Below are positions 1 through 37,471 of a stretch of DNA of 64,000 nucleotides, piece by piece. Numbering within the stretch: the stretch's first letter is position 1; every line of letters begins with the position of its first letter. Below the pieces are notes generated by a model. It saw only the letters and a program-made list of their open reading frames with translations. It made no database searches and was not told where the DNA came from. This DNA is from Enterobacteria phage Ac3. The stretch lies in the sequence record OK040907. The stretch is one strand, 5' to 3'. A program made the position numbers and the translations under genes.

Positions 1-674
1 CCAAATCCCGTAAACTGGACTGTTACACCGAGTCTCATCACATTATCCCGCGCTGCCTGAATGGCTCCGATGACGCGAGCAACCTGGTAGACCTGACCCC
101 TGAGGAACATTACGTTGCACACCAGCTCCTGGTTAAAATTTATCCGTCCGAGCCAAAACTGATTTACGCTGCCAACATGATGACTGTATCCACTAAATAT
201 GCTAAACGCAATAACAAAACGTTCGGTTGGATCCGTCGCAAACTGTGGGAAATCGAAAAAAACAAAGAATTCTCTCAGGAAACCCGTAAGAAAATGTCCG
301 ATGCGGTTGCCAACAAGGCGCGCCTGACCTGCCCGCACTGTGGTAAATCTGGCCTGTCTGGTAACATGAATCGTTGGCACTTCGATAATTGCCCGAACCA
401 CCCGAATCCGAAAGTGCGTCCTCCGATGTCTAAAGAACACCGTAATAACATCAGCAACGGTCTGAAAGCAATTATCCTGGAGGAAACCTCTTGCGAATTC
501 TGCGGTATGATCGGCAAGAAATGCGTGATTGCAGCTCACCGTAACTTCTGTAAGAAAAACCCGAACGGCCGTAAGAAAACCGAGAAAACCGGTACTTGCG
601 TGCACTGCGGTAAAGTTACGACCTTTGGCAACCTGAGCCGTTGGCACAACGACAACTGCAAGCACAAACACTAA
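1..674 (+). CDS. HNH homing endonuclease, C-terminal part (5' end outside window)
   Basis: Frame starting at nt 3 reads SHHIIPRCLNGSDDASNLVDLTPEEHYVAHQLL (HNH motif) then three CxxC...W-x-D/N-NC zinc-finger-like repeats; no in-frame stop upstream; E. coli-type codons. Confidence 0.75.
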   Translation, partial: KSRKLDCYTESHHIIPRCLNGSDDASNLVDLTPEEHYVAHQLLVKIYPSEPKLIYAANMMTVSTKYAKRNNKTFGWIRRKLWEIEKNKEFSQETRKKMSDAVANKARLTCPHCGKSGLSGNMNRWHFDNCPNHPNPKVRPPMSKEHRNNISNGLKAIILEETSCEFCGMIGKKCVIAAHRNFCKKNPNGRKKTEKTGTCVHCGKVTTFGNLSRWHNDNCKHKH

Positions 675-2359
675 TTGATCGTAGCAACGGAGAAACGACC
701 CACTTTCTCCATTTTGATGTGCTGACCGTAGTCCTGTGGGTCGTGGTCTTTGTGGCTGATAATGAAAAAGTTAGTATCTTTCAGGCCATCGAGAATTTTA
801 GCGACGTTTTTGATACCTTCGGCGTCGAACGCGCCATCGTACACTTCATCCAGGAACAGGCAAGAGATTTTTACACCAGAGACTTTTTCGGCGATGTCAC
901 GCCAGGTGAACAGGAGGGCGATATCGATACGTGCCTTTTCGCCTTGGGAGAAGGATGCATAAGAGAAATCTTCGCGGCCGCGGGATTTGATAGTTTCGTT
1001 GAATTCCTCGTCCAGGGTGAAAACATAGTCCGCCTCCATAATTTTCAGATAATGGTTGATCTGTTTGTTGAACAGCGGGATGTATTTCTTAATGATCGCG
1101 CCCTTGATGCCGCTGTCTTTCAGCATGTCGGTCAGGATGCCACGGTGGTATTTTTCCATCACCAGGTTGGTTTTAGTCTTCACGATCTTATCCAGCTCTT
1201 CCTGCAGGAGGGCAATTTCGTCCGCGTGGTCAATGAATTCAGAGGAAGCTTTTTCAATGGCAGCTTTAACTTTCTTAGCTTTGTCAACCGTGGTAATCAG
1301 GGACTGTTTCTTGTTACGAATATCGTTCGCCAGAGACTGTTGGGTCTTAATGTTATCACGATATTCGTCCACCAGGACTTTCAGGTTATCGCGGTGGGTG
1401 GACAGTTGTTCAAAAGAGTGGGTGCATTCGCTCACCTTATCTTTAATTTTGCTCACAACTTTATCACCGCTGGACAGTTGAGACAGGCAGGTCGGACACA
1501 GACCGCCCTCGTGGTACATGTTGATAACTTTGTTGTAGCTATCGATTTTGGATTTAATCAGCACGGCCTCCTGGCCAATTTTGTTAAAAGCATCAGTAGG
1601 GTCTTCGTCCAGCACGATGTTGACCAGACGTTCATTCGCTTCCTCGATTTCGCTTTTCAGGGTACGAGCTTCTTTAGCCAGATCGTCGTACATGTTCTGC
1701 AGGCGCGTCAGGTTGTCACCGGTCAGTTTCTTCTGACGTTCTACGTTGTCGTTGTAGATCTTGATCTGTTGGATAATAGAGTCTTTCTTCACATCCAGTA
1801 CCTGGTTCTGAGAGTTCAGTTCACGGATCAGTGCTTTGTTCAGTTTGTCCATCTCCGCCAGGGTGCCAACCTCCAGGAGGTCTTCGACCAGCTTACGGCG
1901 TGCTGGAGTGCTCAGGCCCATGAACGGAGTGTAACCCGCAGTGCCGAGCACAACAATCTGCTTGAAGCTAGCGTAAGACATACCGATCAGCTGTTCGAAC
2001 TCGGCCTGAAAATCTTTGGAAGAGGCAGATTCGTTCAGACGGGTGCCGTTCACAGTGATTTCAAAGACGTTTGGTTTTTGACCGCGTTTGATGTAATATT
2101 TCTTTTCGTCATATTCCATCCACAGTTCTACCAGGAGTTCTTTCTTATTGGTGCTGTTGATCAGCTGGCCTTTCTTAACGTCGCGGAACGGTTTACCGAA
2201 GAGGCCGAAGGTAATAGCCTCCAGCATGGTAGATTTACCGCCACCGTTACGACCAGTGATCAGGGTTTTCTGAACTTTGTCCAGCTGGATATCAACGCCG
2301 TTCTGGCCTACGCTCATAATGTTCTTGTATTTAACACGGTTCAGTTTAAAGGATTTCAT
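671..2359 (-). CDS. 46: gp46 recombination endonuclease subunit (Rad50/SbcC-like ATPase)
   Basis: 562 aa; N-terminal Walker A GRNGGGKST, central coiled coil with CPTC zinc hook, signature FSQGE, Walker B LFLDEV; partner gene 47 nearby; written in E. coli-optimal codons. Confidence 0.9.
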   Translation of the reverse strand: MKSFKLNRVKYKNIMSVGQNGVDIQLDKVQKTLITGRNGGGKSTMLEAITFGLFGKPFRDVKKGQLINSTNKKELLVELWMEYDEKKYYIKRGQKPNVFEITVNGTRLNESASSKDFQAEFEQLIGMSYASFKQIVVLGTAGYTPFMGLSTPARRKLVEDLLEVGTLAEMDKLNKALIRELNSQNQVLDVKKDSIIQQIKIYNDNVERQKKLTGDNLTRLQNMYDDLAKEARTLKSEIEEANERLVNIVLDEDPTDAFNKIGQEAVLIKSKIDSYNKVINMYHEGGLCPTCLSQLSSGDKVVSKIKDKVSECTHSFEQLSTHRDNLKVLVDEYRDNIKTQQSLANDIRNKKQSLITTVDKAKKVKAAIEKASSEFIDHADEIALLQEELDKIVKTKTNLVMEKYHRGILTDMLKDSGIKGAIIKKYIPLFNKQINHYLKIMEADYVFTLDEEFNETIKSRGREDFSYASFSQGEKARIDIALLFTWRDIAEKVSGVKISCLFLDEVYDGAFDAEGIKNVAKILDGLKDTNFFIISHKDHDPQDYGQHIKMEKVGRFSVATIN

Positions 2360-2374
2360 TTTGTATCCAATTGT

Positions 2375-3240
2375 TTAGAGGCTAGAGAATTCTTTTACCA
2401 GGGCTTGCAGGCTAGCTTCGATCGGATAACCATTTTTCACCAGCATTTTACGGAACATCACGTGTTTAGGACGGTTATAGCTGATCCACAGTTCGTACAG
2501 TTTGTCTTTGTTGTCCCAGTGGTAACCTTTGCGACGGCTGGCAATGTGAGCCTTACGAATCTCCGGATTTTTCCAGCTTGCAGCGACAGAGTTGGAAATC
2601 GGCTTTTGATATTTTGAGACGGGCACAGCGGAGCGAAAGGCTTACGAGTGTTGAGTTTGGTGCGTTTCATGGTCAGACCGTTTGCCAGATGCCACTGGAA
2701 TTTCTGTTTAGTTTTGAAGTTATTCAGACGTTCTTTGTTATCCTTACGGTTTTTCGCTACGGAGAAGTATTTCAGTGCGCGTTCACGAGCTGCATTACGG
2801 TTCTGTGGGTTGGAGTAATACTGTTGCAGGCGTTTAGAAATGGTATCGGAAACATCCTGTTTGATAAAAGAGTATTCTGCCGCAATCAGATCAACTTCTG
2901 CCAGGCTGAGGTTTTTATAGGTTTTGCCAGACATCATACGATTCAGCGCGTTCAGCATTTTACCGTTTTTACCTTTTGCCAGGAGGAAGTGTGCTTTAAA
3001 GTGGTTAAAGTGGCTGAGGTTCACCAGGTTCCAGGTAGATTTGAGATATTCCGGGAAGATAGATTTCGGCAGCACGTGATGTGCTTCGGTCTTGCCCGGA
3101 GTCTTAACGGTGCTGTTAACGCTAATGAAGTTGATATAGGACTTAGCGTCTTCCTCAGACAGCGCCAGTTTTTCCACCAGTTCTTTGATCAGGAATTCAT
3201 CGTTGATGTCCAGTTTGAAGTTTTTAACAAAAGATTCCTT
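2375..3240 (-). pseudogene. HNH (Mob-like) homing endonuclease, frameshifted and without a clear start
   Basis: Upstream frame has AHHVLPKS...NLVNLSHFNHFKAH; coding continues in another frame (SWKNPEIRKAHIASRRKGYHWD...) after an apparent 1-nt deletion near 2600; in-frame stop at 3241-3243 with no ATG before GTG 3177. Confidence 0.6.
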
Positions 3241-14148: not shown

Positions 14149-14319
14149 TTAGTTGCGCAGCTTATTCAGTTCCTCGTCATCGATCCAAGACTCCAGACCG
14201 GACGGCAGAGCACATTCGATCTCCCACAGGAGTTCCTCAATTTTCTGCAGGCGATCCAGTTCCTCAGCCGGGATGGTCACCATGGACGGTGCACGGCTTA
14301 CGTTAATGTCATAGATCAT
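14149..14319 (-). CDS. small acidic hypothetical protein (E. coli-optimal codons)
   Basis: 56 aa MIYDINVSRAPSMVTIPAEELDRLQKIEELLWEIECALPSGLESWIDDEELNKLRN; below the 60-aa ORF-track cutoff; island bounded exactly by its start and stop codons. Confidence 0.5.
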   Translation of the reverse strand: MIYDINVSRAPSMVTIPAEELDRLQKIEELLWEIECALPSGLESWIDDEELNKLRN

Positions 14320-17471: not shown

Positions 17472-18495
17472 AGTTCAGTGCATTTAATGCATTGTTCAGT
17501 TTAGAACGTTGCTTCGTGAGATTTTTGACTTTTTCTTGTGCTTTTTCTAGCATCTTTTCAGCTTCTAACACTTCATTGGTCGCTTTAACGAGTTCATCAT
17601 CTACTGCCTTGATAGACTTCTCAATCGCATCCGCGTGCCATTTTTCAACAGGTTTAAGACTCGGATTTTCAATAGGAAGAAAATTCACTTTATTGAATTT
17701 CCATGCATCCTTATTACCTGAACTATACATCCAAAATTTAGGATCGTTTGATGAGTAATTGGATAAATTTAAATTTAAGTTATCTTGCACTTCCTGCTTC
17801 TTCTCTTGCGTGACTTCGTCCTTTCTCAAAAAATCATATTTAAATGAAACAATCATATCAAGTTCATATGTTGTTGTGTCTAATTTAAATCGTTCGAAAT
17901 GCTGTGAAATCTTAGACCGAACAGCGGCAACAACATCCATATACTTAAATGCTTCTGTCAACTGTGATTTAAGGCATTCACAAATTGAAAGAGAATTTTT
18001 TGTATTAGGTTTAAAGCTAATTCGTGCAGTTCTATTATTTTCTTTTAATGGTCTTACTTCCATCTGAAGAGTATAACCATCAAATTTCAAGTTCTTTAAG
18101 TTAATATCAGAACCTTTTAATCGACTAGCAGTTGATAAAATTTGCTTTAATTGTCTACGGAACAGAGCAATAAATCTCCATTCAATACGATAATGATTTG
18201 GATTGAAAAATCCAGATGATAAATCGACCTTACTCTGACCAACACCTTGAACAAATAGAGGATTTTTATAATCAATAGTTTTACAGAAATCGGTGAGCTG
18301 CTCACGAGCAGTCATTTGTGTAATATATCCCGCTTTACTAAAATGACGTAACCATTCACTGCTATTCATATACTTAAAGTGAATGGAACTATTAACTCTA
18401 TCAGGGTCTAAATTATTTTGGCACAAAAATGTCATAACATCACGAGTATAGCTGGCATTACGAACCATATCTTCAATTTGAGAACGAGTTTTCAT
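17470..18495 (-). CDS. hypothetical protein with C-terminal coiled coil
   Basis: 341-aa ORF. Confidence 0.55.
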   Translation of the reverse strand: MKTRSQIEDMVRNASYTRDVMTFLCQNNLDPDRVNSSIHFKYMNSSEWLRHFSKAGYITQMTAREQLTDFCKTIDYKNPLFVQGVGQSKVDLSSGFFNPNHYRIEWRFIALFRRQLKQILSTASRLKGSDINLKNLKFDGYTLQMEVRPLKENNRTARISFKPNTKNSLSICECLKSQLTEAFKYMDVVAAVRSKISQHFERFKLDTTTYELDMIVSFKYDFLRKDEVTQEKKQEVQDNLNLNLSNYSSNDPKFWMYSSGNKDAWKFNKVNFLPIENPSLKPVEKWHADAIEKSIKAVDDELVKATNEVLEAEKMLEKAQEKVKNLTKQRSKLNNALNALN

Positions 18496-22637: not shown

Positions 22638-23648
22638 TTACTTATAGTAGGAGCGGTGGTTCTCCAGGTAAACTTTTTCCAGAAAGTCATCCCAGAAACC
22701 CATGTCAACCTTTTGCTGCATGCCATTCTTGGATGCTTCCGTGCTCGCAGCCTCCACCTGATCAACTACGTCCTCGAGGAATTCCTGCACGGTTTTGAAC
22801 GGGTGCTTGCCCAGTTTGACATCCAGGATAAACGGCGCATCCTGCAGTGGGTAGATCAGGTCGCCGGTTTTGTAAATTTCCAGGAGCTGCAGGCCACCGC
22901 GGCATGCATGGGACAGAGCTTTCCAGTCGATGCCTTCGTTTGCCTCTGCTTTGCGGGCGCGTTCGCCGTATTCAGCATCCAGTTTATTCAGGGATTGTTT
23001 CAGTTCGATCAGGCTCAGGGTAGTCTGATATTTACGACCCAGCACCGTATAGAAAGTTTGCGGGCCGGTTTTTTCGTGGTTGTGAAACACCCATTCACAG
23101 AATTCGTTTTCCGGCAGGCGGTGTTTGATATCTTCGATTTTGGTACGGCGTTGACCCTGAGTGCCGTCTTCGCGATAAACGTTGCGCTGGTCCGGGATCT
23201 GATTCACGACTTTCAGGACGTCGCGCAGAGCGGCCAGACGGGAGCCCTTAACACCATATTTAGAGGCTTGTTTGCGTACATAGCCCAGGTAAGATTTCAT
23301 ATTGGTAGTGTAGAAGCGGCTGCGGTTGTCCTGAATGAATTTCCAAACGTCAGGCAGATCGCTCTTAACCACCAGTTCTGGCGGCGTATGCAGCATGTCG
23401 AGTGCCACGGTCTCACCGTCCGCAGCCAGTTTGAAAAAATACTTGAGGCTATACAGTTCGTGGTCGATGTCATCTTTGGTATTCTTGCTAGAGGTATTGT
23501 TGGTGTTTTTAGACATGTGTTCTTTCACGTTGCCGATCAGAATGTCACGTGCCGGTGGCACGAAGATCTCTTTGAAGTCGACATCGCTTTCCGGGGTGGA
23601 AGTGCCGTACAGGTGGCTGCCAAAGTAGGATTTCATCACAGTCTTCAT
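22638..23648 (-). CDS. Pol-beta-superfamily nucleotidyltransferase
   Basis: 336 aa; N-terminal GSHLYGTSTPESDVDF (GS...DxD NTase motif) with later acidic residues and helical C-terminal region; E. coli-optimal codons; start overlaps upstream stop (TAATG). Confidence 0.65.
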   Translation of the reverse strand: MKTVMKSYFGSHLYGTSTPESDVDFKEIFVPPARDILIGNVKEHMSKNTNNTSSKNTKDDIDHELYSLKYFFKLAADGETVALDMLHTPPELVVKSDLPDVWKFIQDNRSRFYTTNMKSYLGYVRKQASKYGVKGSRLAALRDVLKVVNQIPDQRNVYREDGTQGQRRTKIEDIKHRLPENEFCEWVFHNHEKTGPQTFYTVLGRKYQTTLSLIELKQSLNKLDAEYGERARKAEANEGIDWKALSHACRGGLQLLEIYKTGDLIYPLQDAPFILDVKLGKHPFKTVQEFLEDVVDQVEAASTEASKNGMQQKVDMGFWDDFLEKVYLENHRSYYK

Positions 23649-24109
23649 TATTCAGCTTTGTATTCGATCACCGGACACACTTTCGCTTTGCGCGCTTTCA
23701 GGAACTCAACAATGATAGATTTCTTCGGTTGGATTGGCGGCAGGCCTTTGTAAGCGCGATCGATGTTTTCAACGTGCAGCGCGTAATCTTTCTTCCATTT
23801 GTAGTCTTTGTATTTCTCACGCAGGTGCGCCGGAATCACGAAGGAGCCGATAATCAGGAGAACCACCAGGAGTGCCAGAATGAACGCGGATGGCAGGAGG
23901 GTCCACAGGCTACCGAAGATCAGCCAGCGCTGCAGGGATTCAGCACAGATAATAGTCAGACCAACCAGGATGGCACAACCGAAGATGGAAACGAAAAACG
24001 TCGGGATGGCGATAGACCAGAAGTACGCGCACAGGGTTTTAGGGCGCTGCCACTCGTCGTTAAACAGTTTGAACAGCTTATAGTGCCAAGAGTTTTCATT
24101 AATGATCAT
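23648..24109 (-). CDS. small membrane protein coupled to the NTase
   Basis: 153 aa, 2-3 hydrophobic helices then basic tail; AAGGA SD; E. coli-optimal codons. Confidence 0.6.
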   Translation of the reverse strand: MIINENSWHYKLFKLFNDEWQRPKTLCAYFWSIAIPTFFVSIFGCAILVGLTIICAESLQRWLIFGSLWTLLPSAFILALLVVLLIIGSFVIPAHLREKYKDYKWKKDYALHVENIDRAYKGLPPIQPKKSIIVEFLKARKAKVCPVIEYKAE

Positions 24110-28083: not shown

Positions 28084-28514
28084 TTATTTCGGTTTACCTT
28101 CCTTCACGAAGTCTGGGTACGGATAAAAGCCAGAGTAGAAACCTTCGCCTTTGTGGTTGATACAACCTTTGTTGGAACAATAGCACCAGTAATCGAAATC
28201 GCAAGCCATTTCGTCGTTGCACAGGGCGAAAACGACCGGCCATTTACATTTTTCACAGTGCGCGTTTTTCAGGATGGAAGTCTGGGATACCGCCAGGTGA
28301 CTTTCAGGCAGTATTCCTCCACATGCTGTTTGCGACCTTTCTTGTCGATGAAGGTGTATTCAACGAAGGTACCGATGTAATCTTTATCCACGTCGTGCGG
28401 AGAGTTGATCGGGCACTTAGTACGGCAGATGCGTTCCCACTGACGAATGATTACAGCCTTGTTTTTCGGGTCGAACGGGTGTGGATAATGTACTTTTACA
28501 GCAGCGGCTCCCAA
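28084..28514 (-). pseudogene. Cys/His-rich putative zinc-binding domain, disrupted by frameshifts (probably once fused to the upstream macro domain)
   Basis: Coding in E. coli-optimal codons switches frame near 28292-28297 (..KVTW / AVSQTSILKNAHCEKCKW..); its start has no ATG and overlaps the macro gene stop, where re-inserting one G would fuse the frames. Confidence 0.5.
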
Positions 28515-28963
28515 TCAACGATTACGATTTCCAGTTTGGAAGAATAGGTGTCCAGGATACCTTCAATGATGTCCCAGTTGCCTTTACCGATGCCGGCGCC
28601 GATGCGCGGCATGTAGATGGTTGGTTTGATCAGTTTGTTTTCACCGAATTCGTTCAGCTCCAGCATACAATTCATCAGCGCAGAATATTCAAAGTTTGGG
28701 CCCGGCTGGAACTGAGTGTACAGGTTAAAACAGTACGCTTTGTGGGTGCGAAAGTACTTTTCATACACGGAGTAGCTACCCAGTTTAGTCACGTCGCCCC
28801 ATTCGGTCTGCAGCTTGTCAGCTTCCAGGATTTTCGGAAACGCTTTGGTCAGCTGACCGGCTACACCCGCTTTCATGGTATGGAAGCAGTTACAGCCGTG
28901 AGCGATGTTTTTACCTTCGGCAAACAGCGCTACGATATCGCCTTTGATGTATTTGACAATCAT
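28496..28963 (-). CDS. macro domain protein, TARG1/OARD1/DarG-like (putative ADP-ribose hydrolase)
   Basis: 155 aa; KGDIVALF...HGCNCFHTMKAGVAGQL...MPRIGAGIGKGNWD matches TARG1-family macro motifs; E. coli-optimal codons; ATGA overlap with upstream gene. Confidence 0.7.
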   Translation of the reverse strand: MIVKYIKGDIVALFAEGKNIAHGCNCFHTMKAGVAGQLTKAFPKILEADKLQTEWGDVTKLGSYSVYEKYFRTHKAYCFNLYTQFQPGPNFEYSALMNCMLELNEFGENKLIKPTIYMPRIGAGIGKGNWDIIEGILDTYSSKLEIVIVDWEPLL

Positions 28964-33479: not shown

Positions 33480-34448
<969 letters not shown>

Positions 34449-34467
<19 letters not shown>

Positions 34468-34937
34468 TCAGTGATAAAGTTATTTAAATTTTGAGTATAT
34501 TTCTTTTCATCAAAAATCTTTTGTTGTCTGCGTAGCCGCCATGGCATTTCAATGAACGTGTACCATATCCCAGATAATATTGCTGCAGTAAAAATATTAA
34601 CAAGTATGGTTAAAAGAATCCAATCTCCTATTCTGTCCATTGGATTTTTTATAAAAAAGTAAAATACGAATGATGTCACAGGAAGACTAATAATATACCA
34701 CAGAATCATAATTTTATCTGTGAACCAATCAGCGTTCGTTAACTTAGCGCGACCATTATGAATACACACGAATTTATCATCTGTTATAATAGATGGCTTA
34801 GCTGCTTGATATCCCATTCTAAACTCCCTAATCAACAAATTTTTCATATCTTCGGAACAACCATTCCAGTCAACTCTATCAACTGAAATGCCATCATCCC
34901 CATCATCTAAATCATACCAGCGAGTTTTTAAAATCAT
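34449..34937 (-). CDS. membrane protein (C-terminal ..ECRKLK tail family)
   Basis: 162 aa, hydrophobic helices. Confidence 0.5.
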
Positions 34938-35239
34938 TTAATTTTCCTACAATCACTCACAAACTCTTCCATTGATTCTTTTTCAATATAAGACATGTAG
35001 CTATTATATTCCTTTAATTGTATTTTGTAATCTTTTTTTCTTTGCCAATTTATTTTAAAATTATCATAATGAAAATATAACATGGTACCAAAGAATGAAA
35101 ATAATGAAATCGCTATAGTATAATGAAGTTCACTCCAAACTTCTATTATATCTATTATACCGCTGACGTTACTACGGATGTTTAAAATAAGACAGTCAAT
35201 TAACAATCCAAAAAGACTACCCGCAAGAGCTGCAGCCAA
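34934..35239 (-). CDS. membrane protein (C-terminal ..DCRKIK tail family)
   Basis: 101 aa, hydrophobic N terminus. Confidence 0.5.
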   Translation of the reverse strand: MAAALAGSLFGLLIDCLILNIRSNVSGIIDIIEVWSELHYTIAISLFSFFGTMLYFHYDNFKINWQRKKDYKIQLKEYNSYMSYIEKESMEEFVSDCRKIK

Positions 35240-35289
35240 CGCTACAGCAAAAATTAAAAATGACTCAGGAAGAGAATATTTGACTTTAT

Positions 35290-35683
35290 TCAGTTCTGGC
35301 TTTTGCAGCGGCTCTCTTTTACGAATTTCATGATTTCATCAAATTCGTGAGCCGCCAGCTTCAGCTGGTGTTCTTTCTTGATTTTCTTGCACTGCGCTTT
35401 CCAGTCACGAACACGTTTGCGATAATGACGACCCTGGTACCAGTAACCGATCCAGTTGATCGGCACGAGCAGGAGCGGAACCACCAGCGGCAGGATCAGG
35501 GTAGCGCCGAAGATTGCGCCGGATTCGATATCAGTCATAACGTCGATAACCATACCGGCAATAACCAGAATAACAAAAGAGACCACAACCACCGGACCGA
35601 TCAGCACGTCAGTGGAGATAATTTGGCGCTTCAGTTCGTATTTCAGTGGTTTGCTCGGCAGGTACAGAGACGGTTTGGACATA
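35290..35683 (-). CDS. membrane protein (same family, E. coli-optimal codons)
   Basis: 130 aa from ATG 35683 (MSKPSLYLPSK...), two hydrophobic helices, basic tail ending ..ESRCKSQN; ORF track extends to 35703 through native sequence. Confidence 0.55.
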
Positions 35684-36259
35684 TTCTCTACATTCCTTAA
35701 CAAATTTTTCTAATAATAAATCGCTTTCAAAATTGGGATTTTCTACGAATTTATCAAAAAGATCATCGACAATAGTTAAGATATTCTTTTTACTAAGAAT
35801 ACGTTTATTTTCATATTTTGTTTCAGAGTCAACTATAAGAGTAAAGAAATATTTCTTGCCCTGAAATTTTACAGTAGTATCAATATAGAATAAATTTGAC
35901 TTTTGTAAATTACGTTTAAACCATGCATCACTTAAACTATAAACGCCAAGATAATCATAATCGTCGTTTAAATAACAGACCGTCCATTCAGGAGAAACAA
36001 AATCAGTAAATTCAACGTCAAAATCGCATGTTAATAAATGAATTGATTCAATACTGTTAATAAGTATTCCAGGACGTATTAAAGACTTTTTACCTCTAAA
36101 AAATCTTCCAGAAAGACTTTCAACAGTTTCATATGAAGAACCCCAATAATAATTACGTCCTTCTGCCATACGTTTAAGAGCATTTAATAATTGGTCTGGA
36201 ACATCAACCTGTCTTTGGAACTCTTCAAACATTGAATTGAAATCACTTTGCATTTTCAT
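35609..36259 (-). CDS. hypothetical protein (true 3' end probably near 35690)
   Basis: 216-aa ORF; last ~25 codons read through the recoded gene in another frame, so the native stop appears lost; ..KFVKECREY resembles the family tail. Confidence 0.5.
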   Translation of the reverse strand: MKMQSDFNSMFEEFQRQVDVPDQLLNALKRMAEGRNYYWGSSYETVESLSGRFFRGKKSLIRPGILINSIESIHLLTCDFDVEFTDFVSPEWTVCYLNDDYDYLGVYSLSDAWFKRNLQKSNLFYIDTTVKFQGKKYFFTLIVDSETKYENKRILSKKNILTIVDDLFDKFVENPNFESDLLLEKFVKECREYVQTVSVPAEQTTEIRTEAPNYLH

Positions 36260-36280
36260 TCCTACTTACTCCAAGTAATA

Positions 36281-36294
36281 GGGGCCGAAGCCCC
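36281..36294. terminator. GC hairpin (terminator-like)
   Basis: GGGGCCGAAGCCCC palindrome between genes; no clear T-run on the minus side. Confidence 0.35.
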
Positions 36295-36300
36295 TTATCA

Positions 36301-36894
36301 TTATTTCAGAGAATTAATATATTCCTGAACATCGGCAGAGGTAGTTTCAACCCCAGAAATATTACCATTAAAGGTTTCAACTCGAGCAAGAGTATCTTCA
36401 ATATCAACCTTAGTCAGTGCTGCAATTTCAACTACATCATCAGCAGTACTAATTCCAAGGGCATTCGCGGCGCGAGTTTCACGGATATATTCCAATTTAA
36501 CTGCAAGTTCTTGGCGAGCATCATCTAACTCAACTACTTTCTTGGCAATTTCAATTCGCATTTCAGCATAACCATCAGCTTTAGTAGTCAACTGCTCAGC
36601 TGTTCGACGATATAGTAAACCAAGTTTAGCATGCATTGTTACATCTTGACCTTCCGAAAGGAGCTTGCGAATTTCACGCTCTTTTGATTCGGCCTGCTTA
36701 TTCTTTTCGACAATAAGTTCACGAATACGCTTTTCTTCATTAATAGATTTAACAGAAGCAGTTTTTAGATCTTTAATTTTATCAAGCAATTTTGCTGCTG
36801 CGGCAGTATACTGCTCTTCAACAGATAGATTTTTAGCCATAGCAGAACCAAGTTTAGTGCGAATAAACTCAACAATTTTCTTCAGTGTGTTCAT
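36301..36894 (-). CDS. coiled-coil hypothetical protein
   Basis: 197 aa, helical, heptad-rich. Confidence 0.5.
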
Positions 36895-36937
36895 AGTATT
36901 TCCTTAGGTTGATTAGAAATTAAAATCTGCAGAAGAA

Positions 36938-37471
36938 TTATATCATGCTACTTAAGAGATGTAAACTATTTTTAATTTTACAAATTCGTTCAGCTTCTTC
37001 AACAGCGGCAGTGATAATGCTTTTAGCTATAGGAGTACTAATATTAGTAGCTTTTACACTTAACACGATTTCTTTATCTTTACCAGGCCAACCCCACGAT
37101 TTTTCACCATGAGTGCCTTTAATTACAGCAGACACCTCAAGTGAGCATCCATTATCGCATGTTTTTACATTAACAACCCAAGTGTCACTTTTCTCAACCG
37201 GTTTATCCCAGTAAATATTAAGAATACGTGGGACATCAAATTTAGCAGGGCAAATCTTAACCGTAAGACCTTCGCTTTCTAGCCAATTAATAAGAGGGCG
37301 TTCATACATGCGGCGATGTGGGCTTTGAACTCGACAAGCTTTGTACCCATTGCTTGCGGCTTCACTAAGCTCTTCTAATACATGCTTTTGCATTATTGAT
37401 AAGATACCATCAAAAGATTTTTCGGAAGTTTCATTCAGTTCGGTATAAAGAGACATAACAGTTTTCCTCAA
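36938..37471 (-). CDS. hypothetical protein
   Basis: 177-aa ORF. Confidence 0.5.
   Translation of the reverse strand: MRKTVMSLYTELNETSEKSFDGILSIMQKHVLEELSEAASNGYKACRVQSPHRRMYERPLINWLESEGLTVKICPAKFDVPRILNIYWDKPVEKSDTWVVNVKTCDNGCSLEVSAVIKGTHGEKSWGWPGKDKEIVLSVKATNISTPIAKSIITAAVEEAERICKIKNSLHLLSSMI

Follow-up and report, generated by a model that had tools for sequence, protein, structure and literature searches.

Why does one gene in a cluster of small phage genes read like a highly expressed gene of Escherichia coli, and what do the members of that cluster share? The cluster occupies positions 34449-36259, on the minus strand, of a 64,000-nucleotide stretch of Enterobacteria phage Ac3 (sequence record OK040907; the whole stretch is called the window below). 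A first-pass annotation, made from the letters alone, had described it as a tandem family of small membrane proteins with a common C-terminal tail, one member of which had been recoded while its neighbor had been extended into the recoded gene. Our analysis indicates that the cluster is the native e.5-e.4-e.3-e.2(-nudE) block of a T-even phage of the RB51/RB68 type, with an artificial rewrite of e.4 and, separately, a natural tail motif. We put the probability of this reading at roughly 85%.

Positions 34000-36900 matched 635 T-even phage records by megablast, the best being Enterobacteria phages RB51 and RB68 (position 34000 corresponds to position 66000 of the record). All differences given below are from an ungapped comparison of the 64-kb window with RB51 (NC_012635.1, 32001-96000). 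The window matches this segment exactly outside five patches of dense change and three isolated substitutions, and the differences total 1,513. The four consecutive minus-strand open reading frames (ORFs) predicted earlier, with tails of 11 residues, EEFVSDCRKIK, KFVKESRCKSQN, and KFVKECREY, are present and are the RB51 genes e.2, e.3, e.4, and e.5, located between nudE and e.6. The e.2 gene (34449-34937; 162 amino acids [aa]) is identical to that of RB51. The e.3 gene (34934-35308) encodes 124 aa in RB51 and has an altered start codon in the window. The e.4 gene (35290-35682; 130 aa) ends at 35682, not at 35683 as first given. The e.5 ORF of the window (35609-36259; 216 aa) is longer than the native gene (35651-36259; 202 aa), which encodes a soluble protein.

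The NudE, e.2, e.6, and e.4 proteins are 100% identical to those in the RB51 record. Full-length matches were found to PHROG 2203 for e.2 (E = 4.7e-79), 2330 for e.3 (E = 7.5e-63), 2604 for e.4 (E = 1.8e-69; residues 1-130 of 130), and 2607 for e.5 (E = 2e-108). Precomputed Pfam assignments exist for e.2 homologs (PF26896) and e.4 homologs (PF26873, carried by all 98). The order e.5-e.4-e.3-e.2 between e.6 and nudE is the same in RB51, T4, T2, and Mosigvirus. Native coding sequences overlap throughout, by 32 nucleotides (nt) for e.5/e.4, 19 nt for e.4/e.3, and 4 nt each for e.3/e.2 (ATGA, 34934-34937) and e.2/nudE (ATGA, 34449-34452). The genes themselves are already-known T4/RB51 accessory ORFs.

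e.4 has been recoded without any change to its protein

Relative to RB51, e.4 has 91 nucleotide differences and no amino acid differences. All 91 lie between 35291 and 35677, inside the coding sequence (CDS), and all are synonymous; third codon positions account for 81 of them, first positions for 8, and second positions for 2. Changes affect 84 of the 131 codons, and the stop codon is TGA in place of TAA. GC content rises from 0.354 to 0.499, and GC content at third codon positions (GC3) rises from 0.25 to 0.63. ATA, AGA, CGA, CTA, GGA, and TTA are all gone, and CTG, ATC, CGT/CGC, GGT/GGC, CCG, and TAC are found instead; CTG now specifies 12 of 14 Leu residues and ATC 10 of 13 Ile residues, Arg is encoded only by CGT/CGC, and Gly is encoded only by GGT/GGC. 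The replacement codons are those that highly expressed E. coli genes favor. The suggestion in the first-pass annotation that the third gene is written in E. coli-optimal codons is therefore borne out.

A GC content of 0.50 and E. coli-like codon usage could also mark a natural island, acquired horizontally from a host or adapted naturally to host codon usage. However, natural e.4 relatives (those of T4, T2, and two phages from IMG/VR) show 22-48 nt changes and 10-22 aa changes relative to RB51, spread over all codon positions, and relatives at half the DNA distance of the recoded gene (45-48 nt changes) already carry 20-22 aa changes, whereas the protein encoded here is 100% identical to that of RB51 despite 91 nt changes. 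The changes end exactly at the limits of the CDS, stop codon included. Flanking DNA is unchanged for 6.3 kb on one side and 15.5 kb on the other (nearest further differences from RB51 at 28955 and 51140), overlapping neighbors are broken, and nine other, unrelated genes show the same pattern. Searches for a natural counterpart were negative: among 50,697 phage records the best DNA identity to recoded e.4 was only 78.9%; its 48-nt words were not found in IMG/VR or in 185,579 GTDB genomes; and megablast against PLSDB plasmids and 5,426 complete E. coli genomes gave no match. The natural-island explanation is effectively refuted. Since no public sequence carries this version of the gene, we concluded that e.4 is an artificial synonymous recoding toward E. 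coli-preferred codons. The recoding also creates a GC-rich, terminator-like hairpin on the plus strand at 35353-35370 (CGCCAGC-TTCA-GCTGGTG, followed by a T-run), which is an artifact of the rewrite.

The rewrite damages the overlapping genes e.5 and e.3

The rewrite spanned the e.4 CDS as one unit and disregarded both gene overlaps. In RB51, T4, T2, and Mosigvirus, native e.5 ends within e.4 by 32 nt, and native e.3 starts within e.4 with an overlap of 19-22 nt. Seven substitutions hit the e.5/e.4 overlap. The native e.5 stop codon (35651-35653, minus strand), TAA in RB51, is CAA in the window, and reading continues to a new stop at 35609-35611. Seven of the final eight native residues (195-202) are altered and 14 codons are gained, lengthening the protein from 202 to 216 aa; its end changes from ECREYVKTITIPSK to ECREYVQTVSVPAEQTTEIRTEAPNYLH, each followed by the stop. 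The ORF in the window enters e.4 by 24 codons and a stop, in another frame. Hence, the first-pass annotation had correctly recognized that recoding removed the native e.5 stop, but this stop lies inside e.4 and not near 35690. It had also counted about 25 extra codons, but the net gain is 14 and the 32-nt overlap was already native. An ATGA/TAATG junction had been expected at 35683-35690 in related genomes; T4, T2, and Mosigvirus all have the 32-nt e.5/e.4 overlap instead.

Damage at the other end of e.4 had been overlooked. Three substitutions hit the e.4/e.3 overlap, changing the e.3 start codon (35306-35308) from ATG to CTG and e.3 residue 5 from K to E. Upstream of e.3, AAATTTGTTAAGGAATCGCG has become AAATTCGTAAAAGAGAGCCG, erasing the AAGGAA Shine-Dalgarno sequence. 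The mechanical ORF list retains a 101-aa ORF of e.3 that starts with TTG and would begin within the first transmembrane (TM) helix. In a phage built from this sequence, translation of e.3 would probably fail. Loss of the e.5 stop and loss of the e.3 start and Shine-Dalgarno sequence both arose because the rewrite ignored the overlaps.

A whole-CDS synonymous rewrite toward host codons, with sharp edges and no natural counterpart, is reminiscent of engineered or refactored phage genomes. In the refactored T7.1 and the decompressed phiX174, overlapping genes were reportedly separated first, to avoid side effects. In contrast, overlaps were ignored here, and the starts or stops of neighbors were broken (e.5, e.3, 46.1, RB32ORF110c, and tk.3). 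This damage fits a mechanical, per-CDS in silico edit better than a designed viable phage.

A conserved C-terminal motif is shared by e.2, e.3, and e.5, with a variant in e.4

The native proteins end in an 11-residue tail (e.2), EEFVSDCRKIK (e.3), MKFVKESRCKSQN (e.4), and EKFVKECREYVKTITIPSK (e.5). Those of e.2, e.3, and e.5 have the form [LM]-x-x-F-[IV]-x-[ED]-C-R, and e.4 has a variant with a 2-codon insertion. On the minus strand, the motif is encoded by TTT ATC ACT GAA TGC AGG in e.2 (F-I-T-E-C-R, 34461-34478), by TTT GTG AGT GAT TGT AGG in e.3 (F-V-S-D-C-R, 34946-34963), and by TTT GTT AAG GAA TGT AGA in e.5 (F-V-K-E-C-R, 35687-35704), which recoding leaves untouched. The e.4 variant, F-V-K-E-S-R-C (35305-35325), is natively TTT GTT AAG GAA TCG CGA TGC and has now been recoded. 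The shared tail noted earlier is real and far beyond chance, but e.4 does not follow F-x-x-x-C-R-K and reads F-V-K-E-S-R-C-K.

Within the native 64 kb, 349 ORFs reach 50 aa or more, and a strict pattern, [FYW][IVL]x[DE]CR, matched three times among them, at the tails of e.2, e.3, and e.5. The same three tails were the only matches when all six-frame ORFs of 30 aa or longer from the whole 168,394-bp RB51 genome (2,348 in number) were scanned. Shuffling of residues gave an expectation of 0.016 tail matches, compared to 3 observed, with a maximum of 1 in 2,000 trials. When Ser was allowed in place of Cys, the matches within 64 kb were exactly the four adjacent genes e.2-e.5.

The motif is conserved among relatives. 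F, C, and R do not vary among the distinct sequences of e.2 (46), e.3 (46), and e.5 (11), while invariant positions overall make up 17-44% of the four family alignments. In Mosigvirus, the tails are EQFIMECREYVK for e.5 (46% identity), MEFVKEIRCK for e.4 (50% identity), ENFIKECRK for e.3 (38% identity), and ERFITECRNLR for an e.2-like protein (28% identity) encoded 3.5 kb away in L010; across genera, the e.4 variant is F-V-K-E-[SI]-R-C. An exhaustive profile search recovered a further e.3 clade (P0194) that ends in ENFVRDCRKTK. A fifth carrier, referred to here as M101, is a 101-aa two-TM Mosigvirus protein encoded outside the e.2-e.5 block that ends in LENFIKECRGK (L010, 6644-6949; L014, 5007-5312). 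Two further candidates were not retained. M83, an 83-aa Cys-rich Mosigvirus protein encoded near M101 and ending in EYNIACREI, has no profile similarity to the tails and is an unproven, doubtful match. A seemingly distant e.4 relative from IMG/VR (L011) is a TatC-like protein with a chance shared word and was dropped. We concluded that the tail motif is native and nonrandom. It is apparently undescribed, in otherwise known genes.

Architecture and relationship of the four proteins

By hydropathy, e.2, e.4, and M101 each have two TM segments, and e.3 has a single broad hydrophobic segment. The e.2 protein has an acidic N-terminal domain, two TM-like segments (residues 76-96 and 103-129), and a basic C-terminal region. 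An AlphaFold2 model of e.3 (predicted local distance difference test score [pLDDT], 76) is a helical hairpin in which TM2 forms one continuous helix to residue 123. The e.5 protein has no TM segment (maximum 19-residue hydropathy, 1.12), and its single-sequence AlphaFold2 model was unusable (pLDDT, 41.5). Hence, the earlier description of four hydrophobic membrane proteins applies to e.2, e.3, and e.4, with two TM segments each, but not to e.5. On these models, the tail should lie at the end of the C-terminal helix, and the positive-inside rule should place the termini of the membrane proteins in the cytoplasm.

Could e.2, e.3, e.4, and M101 be paralogues that arose by tandem duplication of a small two-TM gene, with e.5 gaining its tail by recombination? 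They share a common design (N terminus in, two TM segments, a basic juxtamembrane stretch, and a helix of 30-50 residues ending in the motif); e.2, e.3, and e.4 are adjacent; and natural hybrids, described below, show exchange between these genes. In profile-profile comparisons (hhalign), M101 aligned with e.2 over 63 columns and with e.3 over 47 columns (both P = 65%), and e.3 aligned with e.4 over 33 columns (P = 44%). Between the RB51 proteins only the tails were aligned, also for e.2/e.3 (12 columns, P = 53%) and for e.2/e.5 and e.3/e.5 (11-14 columns); e.6, the control, gave no alignment. When the tails (the last 10-17 residues) were trimmed, scores between families were no better than those of unrelated membrane proteins from RB51, such as Imm, Sp, rI, and Ac (P ≤ 0.5-2%); inter-family scores were P ≤ 0.5% with the exception of a weak N-terminal match between e.3 and e.4 (M[QS]KP, P = 10%). 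An e.3 profile searched with HMMER against 1.84 billion representative proteins had seven matches at E ≤ 0.001, which were e.3 relatives and two marginal ones, and none was e.2, e.4, or M101. The four proteins also fall in four separate PHROGs. Taken together, common descent of the two-TM proteins is possible, though we consider it doubtful. We concluded that e.2-e.5 share a short C-terminal motif on similarly designed proteins and that whole-protein paralogy is not demonstrable from their sequences. Of the tandem family first proposed, a C-terminal motif of about 10 residues and the two-TM architecture of e.2, e.3, and e.4 stand, but beyond the tails hhalign detects only the weak e.3/e.4 match at the N terminus.

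Constraint on the tail sequence

Every tail contains AGGA 6-11 nt 5′ of the ATG of the next gene, and all of the junctions overlap. In the e.2 tail, the AGGA starts in the R codon and is the Shine-Dalgarno sequence, 7 nt before the nudE ATG. The e.3 tail has AGGA 7 nt before the e.2 ATG. In the e.5 tail, AAGGAA is the Shine-Dalgarno sequence 11 nt before the e.4 ATG (35680-35682). In the native e.4 tail, AAGGAA is the Shine-Dalgarno sequence of e.3, and CG-ATG-C contains the e.3 start. From the overlaps alone, it is a reasonable inference that the five cistrons e.5-e.4-e.3-e.2-nudE would share one mRNA and have coupled translation.

These features raise the alternative that the tail is a by-product of nucleotide constraint, that is, a junction cassette (Shine-Dalgarno sequence, spacer, and overlapping start) copied by recombination, much like the promoter-early stem-loop (PeSL) elements for which there is precedent in T4-type phages (PMC2839356, PMC4122927). 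In addition to the regular placement of AGGA, the e.4 and e.5 tails have 16 identical nucleotides in common (AAATTTGTTAAGGAAT); the junction of Mosigvirus e.3 with its next gene and that of RB51 e.5 with e.4 are near-identical though nonorthologous; the junction between presence and absence of e.2 falls within the tail; and 13 of the 14 distinct tails use AGR for Arg. However, e.4 and e.5 have the Shine-Dalgarno sequence at their K-E codons, e.2 and e.3 have it at their R-K codons, and F-[IV]-x-[ED]-C-R is kept in both arrangements. F and [IV] sit 12-18 nt upstream of any Shine-Dalgarno sequence. Conservation has a 3-nt periodicity: in the 14 distinct tails, codon positions 1 and 2 are invariant for F, [ED], and C, and R is AG in 13 and CG in one, while position 3 varies (TGT/TGC, 7:7; AGG/AGA, 9:5 plus one CGA; GAA/GAT, 9:5; TTT/TTC, 13:1). 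The same NFIKECR is spelled with three synonymous differences in M101 and Mosigvirus e.3 (TTC/AAA/CGA versus TTT/AAG/AGA). Two specific forms of nucleotide-level explanation were rejected. A general T4 initiation cassette is not apparent, since GAWTGYAGR occurs at 6 sites compared to 4 expected and lies upstream of starts only at these junctions, and coupling hairpins are not apparent, since RNA at the four junctions is not more stable than shuffled sequences (z = -0.09 to +1.8). An origin of the tail purely as a nucleotide cassette is therefore unlikely. The freedom of third positions points to selection at the peptide level, by which the tail would be kept.

Three observations concern start codons within the tails. 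Where the E-C codons take their canonical form, GA-ATG-Y, they contain an ATG in another reading frame (minus strand, 34464-34469 and 35303-35308); the ATG in the e.2 tail is in frame with nudE, and the T4 record annotates NudE from this upstream ATG. In e.4, the e.3 start is at the same place after an apparent 2-codon insertion (E-[SR]-C), which supplies the spacer from Shine-Dalgarno sequence to ATG. In e.5 and Mosigvirus e.3, the embedded ATG forms ATG-TAG.

Gene gain and loss at the tails

The e.2 gene is missing from T2-type genomes (T2 itself [L013], 2816-2876; L007, 4690-4750), and the junction lies within the TGYAGGAAA common to the e.3 and e.2 tails. In T4, e.2 is frameshifted (L012, 2860-3347), leaving a 102-aa ORF with the tail-bearing remainder in another frame. 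Escherichia phage vB_EcoM-UFV05 (P0143) encodes a 106-aa in-frame hybrid, e.4(1-31)::e.2(88-162), joined at a shared P-V; the remainder of e.4, the whole of e.3, and the N-terminal domain of e.2 are deleted. The e.2-e.5 genes are thus to some degree dispensable in nature, and the repeated tail DNA may provide a site of recombination at which genes are gained and lost.

PeSL cassettes mediate modular shuffling in T4-type phages (PMC2839356, PMC4122927). The tail repeats resemble them in being short repeats that border accessory genes in hyperplastic regions, with presence/absence junctions inside the repeat (T2, L007, and UFV05). In contrast to PeSLs, which consist of an intergenic promoter and a hairpin, the e.2-e.5 repeats are coding (the last 6-11 codons) and have no intergenic space, they carry a Shine-Dalgarno sequence where PeSLs carry a promoter, and their conservation is codon-periodic, at the peptide level. 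We found no PeSL-type element at the e.5/e.4/e.3/e.2/nudE junctions, which have neither intergenic space nor stable structure; a stem-loop is present only between e.6 and e.5.

Possible function of the tail

Searches of e.2-e.5 against Pfam, NCBIfam, PADLOC, and PDB sequences returned only subthreshold noise, and literature searches on these ORFs gave nothing relevant. Several database records for homologs of e.2, e.3, or e.4 bear the names "sulfurtransferase," "DNA primase," or "serine decarboxylase." No family search supports these names, which look like propagated misannotations.

The first-pass annotation had suggested a superinfection-exclusion or membrane-targeting set. T4 Imm and Sp are small envelope proteins that the phage expresses early. 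Three of the four proteins here are likewise small inner membrane proteins, encoded in an early-gene accessory region, a setting also known for Imm and Sp, whose genes lie elsewhere in RB51. However, none of the four matched Imm, Sp, or a Pfam, NCBIfam, or PADLOC family above threshold; Imm and Sp scored at background against the e.2 and e.3 profiles (P ≤ 0.7%); the tail motif occurs nowhere else in the RB51 genome; and e.2 is missing from T2-type phages and disrupted by a frameshift in T4. A role in superinfection exclusion or membrane targeting is accordingly quite improbable. We tentatively prefer, with low confidence, the idea that the tail is a cytoplasmic docking motif common to coexpressed accessory proteins, by which e.2-e.5 would meet a common partner or each other. 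Such a signal might join otherwise unrelated T-even proteins, namely, three or four inner membrane proteins and the soluble e.5, or bring them to one partner, in addition to roles in coupling and recombination; we regard this fuller version as speculative, with odds well short of even. If so, the one invariant Cys in every tail might take part in a metal bridge or a disulfide.

Some points weigh against our overall reading of the locus. The sequence would fit an in silico edit and a physically synthesized phage alike. The motif codons are also constrained at the nucleotide level (Shine-Dalgarno sequence, downstream start, and dual coding with the e.4 and e.3 N termini), so part of the tail conservation may be nonpeptide. 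The e.5 tail DNA is identical at 21 of 21 positions between the two genera, and only two phage genera carry e.2-e.5, so independent comparisons are few. Lastly, the docking role of the tail is wholly conjectural.

Other edits and features of the window

Nine further CDSs are recoded, making e.4 one of about ten in the window: RB32ORF054w (a homing endonuclease), gene 46, a split endonuclease-like ORF pair (2375-3240), RB32ORF081c, nrdC.11, RB32ORF096c, RB32ORF111c, tk.3, and tk.4. They lie in patches at 1-3240, 14149-14319, 22638-24109, and 28084-28963. In annotated targets, the protein is unchanged and GC content is raised by 0.11-0.16, except where the rewrite of a neighbor hits a start or stop codon. 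Such collateral changes include loss of the 46.1 and tk.3 stops, conversion of the RB32ORF110c start to ATA, and conversion of the RB32ORF111c and tk.3 starts to GTG.

Isolated nonsynonymous substitutions relative to RB51 were found at 17918 (nrdC.5 Q193R), 51140 (gp7 S195L), and 60975 (wac D456G). The wac allele is that of phage RB68, and the nrdC.5 and gp7 changes match neither RB51 nor RB68. Because of these two, the backbone is an RB51/RB68-type genome that is identical to neither record.

A stem-loop with a C(UUCG)G tetraloop (AGGGGC-TTCG-GCCCCT, 36280-36295, minus strand) lies in the 41-nt e.6/e.5 spacer and bounds the tightly overlapping e.5-e.4-e.3-e.2-nudE block on its upstream side. 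Very stable hairpins of this kind were classically described in T4 intercistronic regions. Directly upstream of e.6, on the minus strand, is a sigma-70 promoter-like site (36937-36965; TTTACA, 17 nt, and TG-TATAAT) with 11 of 12 consensus matches. Judged by its sequence, this site is a plausible early promoter of the e.6-nudE block.

Implications

The GC-rich gene and the neighbor that reads through it represent an artificial edit with predictable side effects, and there is no natural island to pursue. The locus illustrates the effect of naive, per-gene codon optimization in a compact phage genome, where one rewritten gene silently alters two others, e.5 and e.3; for anyone building such a phage, the consequence would be an unintended knockout or change of neighboring genes. 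For the T-even phages, the strictly conserved C-terminal peptide offers a concrete handle, modest but real, on the function of the long-unexplained e.2-e.5 genes.

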